From Patescibacteria group bacterium (GTDB taxonomy: Bacteria; Patescibacteriota; Microgenomatia; UBA12405): a stretch of 64,000 nucleotides of DNA. Below the pieces are notes generated by a model, which was not told where the DNA came from, ran no database searches, and was given only the letters and a program-made list of their open reading frames with translations. The DNA is taken from positions 5,357-69,356 of the forward strand of contig WARW01000022.1 in assembly GCA_013387215.1 (NCBI GenBank), given 5' to 3'. Shown in pieces: positions 8,995 to 9,825 of the stretch (positions are counted from its first letter, which is position 1; each line of letters begins with the position of its first letter). The translations under genes were made by a program, and so were the position numbers.

Positions 8995-9825
8995 TTGTAT
9001 AATTCATATATGAAACTAAAATTAATTGATAAAATTAGAGAATTAATTTACAGTAAGGGAGTAAAAAGTAGAAATGTAGTAAGTTTACAAGAAGTAAATA
9101 TCGCAACAGTAAATTCTTGTACTAGGAAATGTAGATATTGTTATCATGGATCATATAAACAGACTGCTGTGAAATTTATGAAAGAAGAAGTATTTTTAAA
9201 AATTCTAAAAGATCTAAAAGATCTAAATTTTAAGGGAATAATTTCTCCTTTTGAAGGTAATGAGCCTTTGTTAGATAAGCGTTTACCAGATTTTGTAAGA
9301 CTGATATTTGAAACGTTACCAGAAACTAAGTGTTTTGTATTTACGAATGGTGATCTGCTAACTTCAGAAATTGCAAAAAAATTATTTGATGCTGGTTTGA
9401 AAGAAATATTTGTTTCAATGCATGACAAAAAAAATGAAGAAAAAGTGAAAAAAATGATAAAAATTTTTGGAGAAGATAGAATTAAAATTTCATATATGTA
9501 CCAAATGAAACCAGAAGATTTACATAATTTTGCAGGAGTTGTTAAAAATGATTTAGTTAGTCAGAATAAATACAACAAAAACAATTGTGTTTTGCCATTT
9601 AGACAATTGGTTATTGATGTTAATGGTAATGTAAATTTATGTTGTATTGATATTGCAGACAGAATAAGTTTTGGGAATGTTAAGAACAAATCTGTGGGGG
9701 ATATTTTTTATAAAGACGAAAAATTAAATAATATTAGGAAATCATTAAACAAGAATAATCGACTAGGGATGCCAATTTGTAAAGCTTGTAGTTTTAATGG
9801 TCAAGCTTCTTTACTTGAGATTTAA
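8995..9825 (+). CDS. Radical SAM enzyme with C-terminal SPASM/twitch-type auxiliary cluster domain (BtrN-sized)
   Basis: CTRKCRYC is a Cx3Cx2C motif and EGNEPLL resembles GGEPLL. The C-terminal cysteines (CVLPF...LCCID...GMPICKACSF) fit a SPASM/twitch pattern. At 276 aa the true start may be an internal M. Confidence 0.7.
   Translation: MYNSYMKLKLIDKIRELIYSKGVKSRNVVSLQEVNIATVNSCTRKCRYCYHGSYKQTAVKFMKEEVFLKILKDLKDLNFKGIISPFEGNEPLLDKRLPDFVRLIFETLPETKCFVFTNGDLLTSEIAKKLFDAGLKEIFVSMHDKKNEEKVKKMIKIFGEDRIKISYMYQMKPEDLHNFAGVVKNDLVSQNKYNKNNCVLPFRQLVIDVNGNVNLCCIDIADRISFGNVKNKSVGDIFYKDEKLNNIRKSLNKNNRLGMPICKACSFNGQASLLEI

Follow-up and report, generated by a model that had tools for sequence, protein, structure and literature searches.

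A BtrN-family twitch radical SAM protein, probably acting on carbohydrate, in a glycan-assembly locus of a Patescibacteria group bacterium

The question raised by this locus is what a small radical S-adenosylmethionine (SAM) enzyme does among genes of glycan assembly. The locus lies on contig WARW01000022.1 of assembly GCA_013387215.1, from a Patescibacteria group bacterium; we call the whole 64,000-nucleotide stretch of DNA that was analysed the window, and all coordinates are positions in it. The gene in question occupies 8995–9825. An earlier note, made from the letters of the DNA, had proposed its product as a candidate small SPASM/twitch enzyme resembling BtrN and DesII, which would act on a sugar and not mature a peptide. 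Our analysis agreed with the core of this proposal: among solved structures BtrN is by far the closest, by sequence as well as by fold, relatives are fused to glycan-related domains, and it is probable that the protein acts on carbohydrate. As for the outcome of the radical step, we lean tentatively towards epimerisation. The features of the gene that the argument needs are as follows.

8995–9825, plus strand: BtrN-family twitch radical SAM gene, 276 amino acids from a TTG start, with Pfam matches to Radical_SAM and SPASM.
9118–9141, plus strand: codons of the CX3CX2C motif (C42, C46, C49), ligands of the SAM-binding [4Fe-4S] cluster, found by motif search and equivalent to BtrN C16/C20/C23.
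9529–9531, plus strand: Phe179, at the position of BtrN Arg152 in the alignment (HNFAG here, SNRGG in BtrN).
9586–9789, plus strand: twitch core C198-X12-G211-X4-C216 ... C262-X2-C265, the four predicted ligands of one auxiliary [4Fe-4S] cluster, from motif search and BtrN alignment.
9643–9645, plus strand: Cys217, the residue that follows ligand C216, itself not a ligand and a candidate hydrogen-atom donor; the position is cysteine in 127 of 148 relatives.

The open reading frame (ORF) is intact, and an in-frame ATG at 9010 gives a 271-residue product that is 100% identical to NCBI record P0001. As the earlier note had described, the 276-residue protein carries CTRKCRYC (CX3CX2C) at residues 42–49 and a further set of cysteines near the C-terminus, where CVLPF...LCC spans residues 198–217 and PICKAC supplies C262 and C265; in total, nine cysteines are present (42, 46, 49, 113, 198, 216, 217, 262 and 265). 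The two Pfam families that the note had named were both found above their gathering scores, namely Radical_SAM (PF04055; E=4.7e-13, 50.1 bits against a cutoff of 29.5) and SPASM (PF13186; E=5.5e-12, 46.2 bits against 21.5). By the definition given in PMC6231123, SPASM is a seven-cysteine motif, CX9-15GX4C-gap-CX2CX5CX3C-gap-C, with two auxiliary clusters, and twitch is a truncated form with one. Motif search found the CX2CX5CX3C core neither in the query nor in any of 148 family representatives (0/148), and a full SPASM assignment was rejected on this ground. Since CX12GX4C...CX2C is present and the longer core is absent, the protein is therefore assigned as a twitch enzyme with one auxiliary cluster; PF13186 matches it because that model spans twitch domains too. 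Hence the SPASM/twitch proposal survived in its twitch half: the C-terminal cysteines align with the auxiliary-cluster cysteines of BtrN, and all seven cluster cysteines are invariant in 148 of 148 representatives. The auxiliary cluster is predicted to be fully cysteine-ligated, as is that of BtrN (PMC10337720, PMC9012708). No curated NCBIfam family scored above its own cutoff (the best was NirJ2, with 57 bits against 500), and N_Twi_rSAM, which covers the twitch domain only, reached 44.8 bits against 170.

BtrN was the nearest solved structure in every search made against structures. With phmmer against the PDB, BtrN was found at E=2.2e-26 and 96 bits (residues 31–266 against 27–256, 26% identity), and the next entry at 1.8e-3; a profile built from a 20-homologue alignment (A1) matched BtrN over its full length at E=1.4e-56, followed by an N-terminal match at 3.9e-10; and the twitch domain by itself (A3) matched BtrN at E=1.2e-17, followed by anSME at 0.79. 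The AlphaFold2 model of the query (predicted local distance difference test score 87.5, predicted template modelling score 0.84) shows the alternating strands and helices of a partial TIM barrel, preceded by 30 N-terminal residues in a low-confidence helix. All of its top Foldseek matches were radical SAM enzymes. BtrN came first (E=4e-18, template modelling score (TM) 0.75/0.84, root-mean-square deviation 2.6 Å over 241 columns) and CteB next (4.4e-8); CteB, anSME, SuiB, EpeE, PqqE, DesII, SpeY and AbmM were all at least 10 orders of magnitude weaker than BtrN. SpeY and AbmM, twitch-type enzymes of natural-product sugar/aminocyclitol pathways that were found by both fold and profile searches, lay far beyond BtrN (Foldseek E=1.7e-5 with TM about 0.46, and E=1.3e-5, respectively), and their profile matches covered the N-terminal core only.

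BtrN (2-deoxy-scyllo-inosamine (DOIA) dehydrogenase of the butirosin pathway, PDB 4M7T/4M7S) has the same size as the query and the same partial TIM-barrel core plus twitch domain, and the two have the motifs xGEPLL, TNGD and GN and an arginine (Arg248; BtrN Arg218) in common. BtrN C16/C20/C23 align with C42/C46/C49, and C169/C187/C232/C235 with C198/C216/C262/C265, where BtrN numbers are the native ones of chain 4M7S in the phmmer alignment and the pairs of auxiliary-cluster cysteines were counted by hand. The substrate of BtrN is a small carbohydrate-like molecule and no peptide, which is a likeness to the role proposed here. On sequence and predicted fold, the window protein is a member of the BtrN family whose only strong solved relative is BtrN.

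The comparison with the second enzyme named in the earlier note, DesII (thymidine diphosphate-4-amino-4,6-dideoxyglucose deaminase/dehydrogenase), did not hold, whereas that with BtrN did (E=2e-26, TM 0.75/0.84). DesII is a radical SAM enzyme that acts on a nucleotide sugar, but it is much larger, with about 480 residues, and is not known to have a twitch auxiliary cluster; it gave no phmmer match at E<=1 and a poor superposition (Foldseek E=3e-6, TM 0.35/0.23, root-mean-square deviation 11 Å), and was rejected.

The likeness to BtrN also has its limits. BtrN has Arg152 where the query has Phe179, and this arginine is said to have been proposed by Goldman and colleagues in 2013 as the base at the C3-OH of the substrate. 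Conversely, BtrN lacks three residues that the query has, namely Cys217 (Phe188 in BtrN), Asp94 (Cys) and Arg96 (Asn). In addition, BtrN belongs to an aminocyclitol antibiotic cluster, whereas the context of the query is cell-surface glycan assembly, with glycosyltransferases (GTs), wecB and Wzm/Wzt. The 48 window ORFs between 0 and 56 kb were scanned against Pfam, and no gene like the 2-deoxy-scyllo-inosose (2-DOI) synthase of 2-deoxystreptamine aminoglycoside clusters was found among them. Orthology to BtrN (EC 1.1.99.38, DOIA dehydrogenase) was rejected in view of the Arg152 to Phe179 exchange, the additional Cys217, Asp94 and Arg96, and the lack of aminocyclitol pathway genes among the scanned ORFs.

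We searched 1.84 billion representative sequences exhaustively by HMMER. The search returned 8,601 matches at E<=1e-3; with the threshold tightened to E<=1e-10, 2,366 sequence clusters remained, and at E<=1e-30 there were 34. At least 150 sequence clusters, all uncharacterised, are nearer to the query than BtrN is, as all listed matches scored at least 108 bits against 96 for BtrN. A profile search of a named database gave 746 matches at E<=1e-10; the 120 that were listed bear generic names throughout ('SPASM domain-containing protein' and 'MoaA/NifB/PqqE/SkfB family' are examples). The family is large and, apart from BtrN, uncharacterised. Conservation was then counted over the 148 representatives. 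Asp94 is kept in 144 and Arg96 in 141 of them, so that, together with Cys217, three positions distinguish most of the family from BtrN. All of the nearest relatives of BtrN that were sampled keep Asp, Arg and Cys at positions 94, 96 and 217, and BtrN is therefore best seen as a derived member. Position 179 behaves differently: arginine is found in 128 of 148, and phenylalanine in 13, the window protein and 12 close relatives, all from its own clade; these have the signature H-N-F-[AG]-G plus C-x-LPFRQ in common. Taking positions 179 and 217 together, 107 representatives have both Arg and Cys, 21 Arg only, 19 Cys only, and none has neither.

Independent support for a role on carbohydrate came from gene fusions. 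Among 20 long relatives (over 340 amino acids) scanned for extra domains, 10 had a recognisable one. These were GT4 (P0024, P0057), GT2 (P0162, P0158) and GT-C PMT_2 (P0042) glycosyltransferases, a polysaccharide pyruvyl transferase (P0028), class I or Methyltransf_24 methyltransferases (P0029, P0131), the C-terminal domain of a sugar C-methyltransferase (P0109) and PqqD (P0069). Fusion to glycosyltransferase and glycan-tailoring domains supports the carbohydrate role independently of the likeness to BtrN. One of these fusions leads directly back to the window. P0024/P0172 joins a GT to a radical SAM part that is 47% identical to the query, under the Joint Genome Institute name TuaH, and the GT domain of P0024 (residues 131–457) matches residues 346–693 of the 958-residue protein encoded next to the query gene (E=8e-35). 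Homology to the window GT was found neither for the N-terminal extension of P0023 nor for the GT domain of P0057. The genes and intervals around the query gene are listed here.

5363–6058, minus strand: class I methyltransferase, 231 amino acids, kept alongside the radical SAM gene (Pfam; orthologues in loci L001 and L037).
6055–8931, minus strand: protein of 958 amino acids composed of a methyltransferase, a coiled-coil-like linker, a TuaH-like GT4 and a GT2 (Pfam, NCBIfam).
8932–8994, no strand: divergent intergenic region of 63 bp between the GT gene and the radical SAM gene (ORF map).
9822–10904, minus strand: wecB, non-hydrolysing UDP-N-acetylglucosamine 2-epimerase, giving UDP-N-acetylmannosamine (UDP-ManNAc), 422 bits against a TIGR00236 cutoff of 210.
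10905–12463, minus strand: Wzt/Wzm-type ABC-2 glycan exporter (ATPase 10905–11636, permease 11639–12463; Pfam).
12447–13529, minus strand: Acyltransferase_3 membrane O-acyltransferase, whose gene opens the operon that wecB closes (Pfam).
23397–24533, plus strand: DegT/DnrJ/EryC1 aminotransferase (Pfam E=3e-85).

The earlier note had placed the gene between a glycosyltransferase and wecB with a 4-nucleotide convergent overlap, and this arrangement was found as described, with both TAA stop codons of the radical SAM gene and wecB lying within 9822–9825. Most of the 48 scanned ORFs match families of glycan assembly or sugar modification, including GT2, GT4, many GT-C/PMT_2 paralogues, YfhO, methyltransferases, an acyltransferase, the Wzm/Wzt exporter, thiamine-diphosphate enzymes, short-chain dehydrogenases and the DegT aminotransferase. 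A WecC-type UDP-ManNAc dehydrogenase was not found among them. We predict that the 958-residue methyltransferase/GT4/GT2 protein is the functional partner of the radical SAM enzyme; its architecture resembles that of the polymerase-plus-terminator proteins of O-antigen pathways that depend on an ABC transporter.

This linkage is seen repeatedly. In five independent loci (the window, L001, L031/L032, L037 and L006), a TuaH-like GT is encoded next to the radical SAM protein or forms one chain with it. L001, whose radical SAM protein is 52% identical to the query, has wecB, a TuaH-like GT, a 62%-identical orthologue of the 231-residue methyltransferase, MBOAT and AlgX O-acylation genes, which are the functional counterpart of the Acyltransferase_3 of the window, and a 40%-identical DegT at 7 kb from the radical SAM gene. 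In L037 (42% identical), the radical SAM gene precedes by 26 bp, on the same strand, a gene for a 1051-residue protein that repeats the methyltransferase/GT4/GT2 architecture of the 958-residue protein (GT2 part 50% identical); a 46%-identical orthologue of the 231-residue methyltransferase comes next. In L031 and L032, the gene for the GT–radical SAM fusion stands 2 bp 3' of a wecB-type gene, and another GT4 comes after it. L006, from a metagenome-assembled genome (MAG) of Methanoregula, has TuaH-like GT, radical SAM and GT2 genes in a row with Wzm/Wzt. Homologues of Wzm/Wzt also lie near the radical SAM gene in L003 and L004, and L057 (P0023, 48% identical) is a further glycan locus. Across the clade the TuaH-like GT is a more consistent partner than wecB. 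One exception to the glycan context is L002, in which a 35%-identical relative (8001–8831) directly follows another radical SAM gene in phage-like DNA with an integrase, a Dam-like methylase, a reverse transcriptase and many tiny ORFs.

Could the substrate nevertheless be a peptide or protein? A maturase of the type that makes ribosomally synthesised peptides with post-translational modifications (RiPPs), or of the anSME type, would find its substrate encoded elsewhere or in a residue of the neighbouring glycosyltransferase. The Pfam SPASM match fits such an enzyme, and the best partial NCBIfam matches are families of peptide and cofactor maturases, but these scores are all far below their cutoffs (57 bits against 500, for example). 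CteB, SuiB, PqqE and anSMEcpe resemble the query in their radical SAM core and in the N-terminal SPASM half, CX9-15GX4C (PMC6231123). However, SPASM maturases and anSME carry seven cysteines, two auxiliary clusters and either a RiPP recognition element (RRE) or a peptide substrate, whereas the query has a single auxiliary cluster, no SPASM core, no precursor and no Pfam match to a PqqD/RRE domain. Peptide SPASM enzymes were also much weaker fold matches (Foldseek E about 1e-8 to 1e-6, TM <=0.58), and sulfatase genes were absent from the 48 scanned ORFs.

The neighbourhood gave the same answer, and here the expectation that no precursor peptide lies nearby was confirmed. The gaps between long ORFs from 3481 to 13529 measure 4, -4, 63, -4, 0, 2 and -17 bp; with gaps of at most 63 bp within 3 kb, there is therefore no room for a precursor-peptide gene in the window. 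We further clustered 629 small ORFs from within 2 kb of the radical SAM gene in 13 clade loci, and no conserved precursor-peptide ORF was found in these 13 loci: every cluster that covered more than three loci consisted of shadow ORFs on the antisense strand within the radical SAM coding region, and small ORFs conserved outside it were confined to the closely related L003, L004 and L005. One such shadow is a 94-residue antisense ORF at 9144–9428 on the minus strand, whose apparent conservation across loci mirrors that of the sense coding sequence. A gene for a peptide substrate is absent near the radical SAM gene, and the finding by which the earlier note's reading would have been refuted, a conserved precursor gene next to it in homologous loci, did not turn up in these 13 loci. 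One distant relative speaks on the other side: P0069 (347 residues, 31% identical) has a PqqD/RRE domain at its N-terminus. At least one peptide maturase is therefore probably found in the wider family, a warning against carrying a function over to all of its members. For the window protein, a maturase role is largely refuted, and we consider it very improbable.

Under a role on carbohydrate, the protein would be a glycan-tailoring enzyme and would cooperate with the TuaH-like GT4 module in the methyltransferase/GT4/GT2 protein encoded beside it, in a pathway that would be fed with UDP-ManNAc by WecB and whose product would be exported by Wzm/Wzt. The simplest candidate for the substrate is a ManNAc-derived residue. 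We suggest it with reserve, on the ground that the minimal cassette has no dedicated sugar-nucleotide gene besides wecB and that wecB abuts the radical SAM gene in the window. By family membership, we expect SAM cleavage and hydrogen-atom abstraction. The reduced C42/C46/C49 cluster would cleave SAM to a 5'-deoxyadenosyl radical, which would take hydrogen from a ring carbon of the sugar. The sugar would sit between the two clusters, either still as its nucleotide sugar or once it has been transferred to the growing chain. Cys217, which would face the substrate from the other side, beside the auxiliary cluster, would return hydrogen to the opposite face and so invert the stereocentre, after which the auxiliary cluster would re-reduce the thiyl radical.

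Twitch epimerases follow this logic, namely HygY (for hygromycin B), NeoN (from neomycin C to B) and EpeE/YydG (for an epipeptide). Like the query, each combines the radical SAM cluster with a single auxiliary cluster, and in each a non-ligand cysteine gives hydrogen to the substrate radical (HygY Cys183, NeoN Cys249). The substrates of HygY and NeoN are sugars that are already glycosidically linked; that of EpeE is a peptide, and EpeE is a weak match to the query (Foldseek E=7e-7; profile E about 1e-6, covering no more than the N-terminal part). Cys217 directly follows ligand Cys216 and would therefore lie on the auxiliary-cluster side of the substrate. In anSME, likewise, the catalytic Asp277 directly follows the ligand Cys276. 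That Cys276 is an auxiliary-cluster ligand is given in PMC6231123. For EpeE, PMC13012085 describes Cys223 as the hydrogen donor and gives re-reduction of the thiyl radical by the auxiliary cluster as a proposal; cysteine and cluster stand opposite SAM (PMC13012085, PMC10991966), which is compatible with a Cys217 next to ligand Cys216. Our lean towards an epimerase follows from four points: Cys217, conserved and not a ligand, comes right after an auxiliary-cluster ligand; this placement is the geometry described for EpeE; the title of the HygY paper states that removal of one cysteine turns a twitch sugar epimerase into a dehydrogenase, which fits the dehydrogenase BtrN without Cys217; and the minimal wecB / GT–radical SAM / GT4 cassette of L032 has no aminotransferase or reductase that would handle a keto sugar. 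The residue pattern was counted in its favour too: Cys217 is kept in 127 of 148 relatives but is phenylalanine in the dehydrogenase BtrN, position 179 is phenylalanine here, and none of the representatives is without both Arg179 and Cys217.

It is less probable, in our judgement, that the protein is a dehydrogenase of the BtrN type. In that case hydrogen would be taken from a carbinol carbon, and the substrate radical would be deprotonated and would pass one electron to the auxiliary cluster, leaving a keto sugar (for example 3- or 4-keto-ManNAc), which would be transaminated by DegT, as in the BtrN/BtrS pair, or would be C-methylated or reduced. The homology to BtrN, the sole characterised member and itself a dehydrogenase, is full length. 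PMC9012708 and PMC6231123 name the fully cysteine-ligated cluster of BtrN as the proposed electron acceptor, and the same ligation is predicted here. Arginine stands at the BtrN-152 position in 128 of 148 relatives, the L037 orthologue included, but the window protein has phenylalanine, and the family keeps an additional cysteine that BtrN lacks. DegT is present in both the window and L001 (mutually 40% identical), yet it lies 13.6 kb from the radical SAM gene in the window, and neither L037 nor the L031/L032 cassette has it; a conserved aminotransferase or reductase partner, or any other conserved downstream enzyme, was not found in the loci compared, DegT being confined to the window and L001. 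The DegT at 23397–24533 is a possible downstream partner of the radical SAM enzyme only if the latter is a dehydrogenase. The fusion of P0109 to a sugar C-methyltransferase C-terminal domain also fits a dehydrogenase, as this methyltransferase class acts on keto sugars. Keto sugars are, however, rare as end products in glycans, which counts against it.

A different radical reaction on a carbohydrate or glycolipid is still less probable; it might be a diol dehydration or deoxygenation of the AprD4 type, the formation of a C–C or C–O bond, a ring contraction, or an acyl or lipid modification. The sugar-acting twitch enzymes are diverse, and the Foldseek matches include SpeY, a dehydrogenase, and AbmM. 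The discussion of this subfamily in PMC6231123 holds that sequence clustering cannot predict function within it. Asp94 and Arg96, kept by the family and absent from BtrN, imply a different substrate, and the operons of a sister sub-clade with beta-ketoacyl-ACP synthase III (KAS III), acyl carrier protein (ACP) and B12 radical SAM genes suggest acylated substrates. On the other hand, no conserved deoxygenation partner such as an AprD3-like reductase was found in the loci compared, the nearest sequence and fold are those of a simple dehydrogenase scaffold, and no data speak for any specific alternative reaction.

Several findings weigh against the epimerase and glycan reading that we prefer. The only characterised family member, BtrN, is a dehydrogenase, and Cys217 could be structural. 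The exchange of Arg for Phe179 may not signal changed chemistry, as most relatives keep Arg, and the L037 orthologue does so within the same gene module, so Phe179 need not alter function. The link to wecB is seen in only three clade loci. The radical SAM gene is a single-gene unit on the strand opposite to both neighbours, and co-regulation thus lends no support. P0003 (60% identical) and P0005 (53%), the closest homologues with context, come from short contigs on which no glycan genes could be recognised. The sister sub-clade L003, L004, L005 and L063 (43% identical, Arg at 179) has a different operon, with KAS III and ACP genes seen in L063 (594–5969), conserved upstream proteins without a Pfam domain in all four loci, a B12 radical SAM gene in L063, L003 and L004 (3/3 with enough upstream DNA) and a methyltransferase gene in L063 and L003. 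This operon may represent a pathway for an acylated glycoconjugate or a natural product. In the Nitrospirota loci, two conserved neighbours, c7 and c8, gave no Pfam match and no homologue in the window.

Might the gene simply be a decaying passenger in a fast-shuffling glycan island? A precedent exists, as the copy in the Methanoregula locus L006 (7950–8740) is a pseudogene, its CX3CX2C motif being broken by a stop codon and its reading frame shifted at least twice, and the window gene does stand alone on its own strand. However, the window ORF is intact, its product keeps 18 of 18 columns that are invariant in A1, and its AlphaFold2 model is confident, so that this explanation is the most improbable of those considered.

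To our knowledge, the sugar-remodelling radical SAM enzymes (BtrN, HygY, NeoN, SpeY, AprD4, DesII) all belong to antibiotic pathways, and none has been characterised for cell-surface polysaccharides. In the literature searched, no report of SPASM/twitch radical SAM enzymes in polysaccharide biosynthesis was found. Homology to BtrN is easy to find, and the chemistry is putative; the fusions and the Cys/Arg pattern turn this into a testable case. What is new, as judged from sequence, is a predicted BtrN fold and cofactor set with a distinct conserved active-site signature and a genetic, in some relatives physical, coupling to glycosyltransferases of surface glycans. If this protein and its many relatives do tailor sugars in glycan assembly, rare stereoisomers or keto/amino sugars in the envelopes of anaerobes and uncultivated bacteria could come from radical chemistry, which would escape standard pathway prediction. 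A broader proposal, that the 2,366 clusters form a glycosyltransferase-coupled family that epimerises or oxidises sugars in surface-polysaccharide assembly, a tailoring step independent of oxygen for which no characterised example is known, with BtrN a derived offshoot without Cys217, Asp94 and Arg96 and with Cys217 deciding between epimerase and dehydrogenase family-wide, appears doubtful to us at present. The wecB plus GT–radical SAM fusion pair offers a concrete experimental system, and the pattern at Cys217 and Arg179 bears on epimerase versus dehydrogenase outcomes in twitch enzymes.

Some further observations concern the surroundings of the gene. The GC content of the window is low (26–33%). 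Within the 63-bp divergent region, just 5' of the radical SAM start, a hairpin with GC pairs and a T-run lies at 8974–8988 on the plus strand; it is the sole terminator-like site in 1.4 kb, where 0.1 would be expected by chance. A promoter scan near the radical SAM gene was uninformative in this AT-rich DNA, with 7 sites against 7.2 expected.

The earlier note had counted five radical SAM proteins at the locus, the one studied here and four class-B enzymes. The count of five, with 8995–9825 included, was reproduced: three genes are B12-binding (16439–17923, 17903–19483 and 19529–20977), and the fourth (28737–30224) has a Radical_SAM match only and no Pfam B12 match, but groups with these three by BLAST. 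With them in the window are an acetolactate-synthase-like thiamine-diphosphate enzyme, a split transketolase, short-chain dehydrogenases and DegT (20993–22720, 362–1572 and 22708–24533). This set, together with the B12 radical SAM genes, suggests synthesis of a C-methylated or branched-chain sugar. Elsewhere in the family, a locus from a Helicobacter sp. MAG (L024) has at least six SPASM/twitch radical SAM paralogues in 14.7 kb and a split transketolase like that at 362–1572, and in a Shapirobacteria locus (L009) a family member is paired with a split transketolase. Finally, a run of GT-C-type membrane glycosyltransferases extends over 33935–50283 and 51044–53323 of the window, with seven PMT/PMT_2, one GT87 and two YfhO-like members, an unusually high number of GT-C paralogues for one locus.

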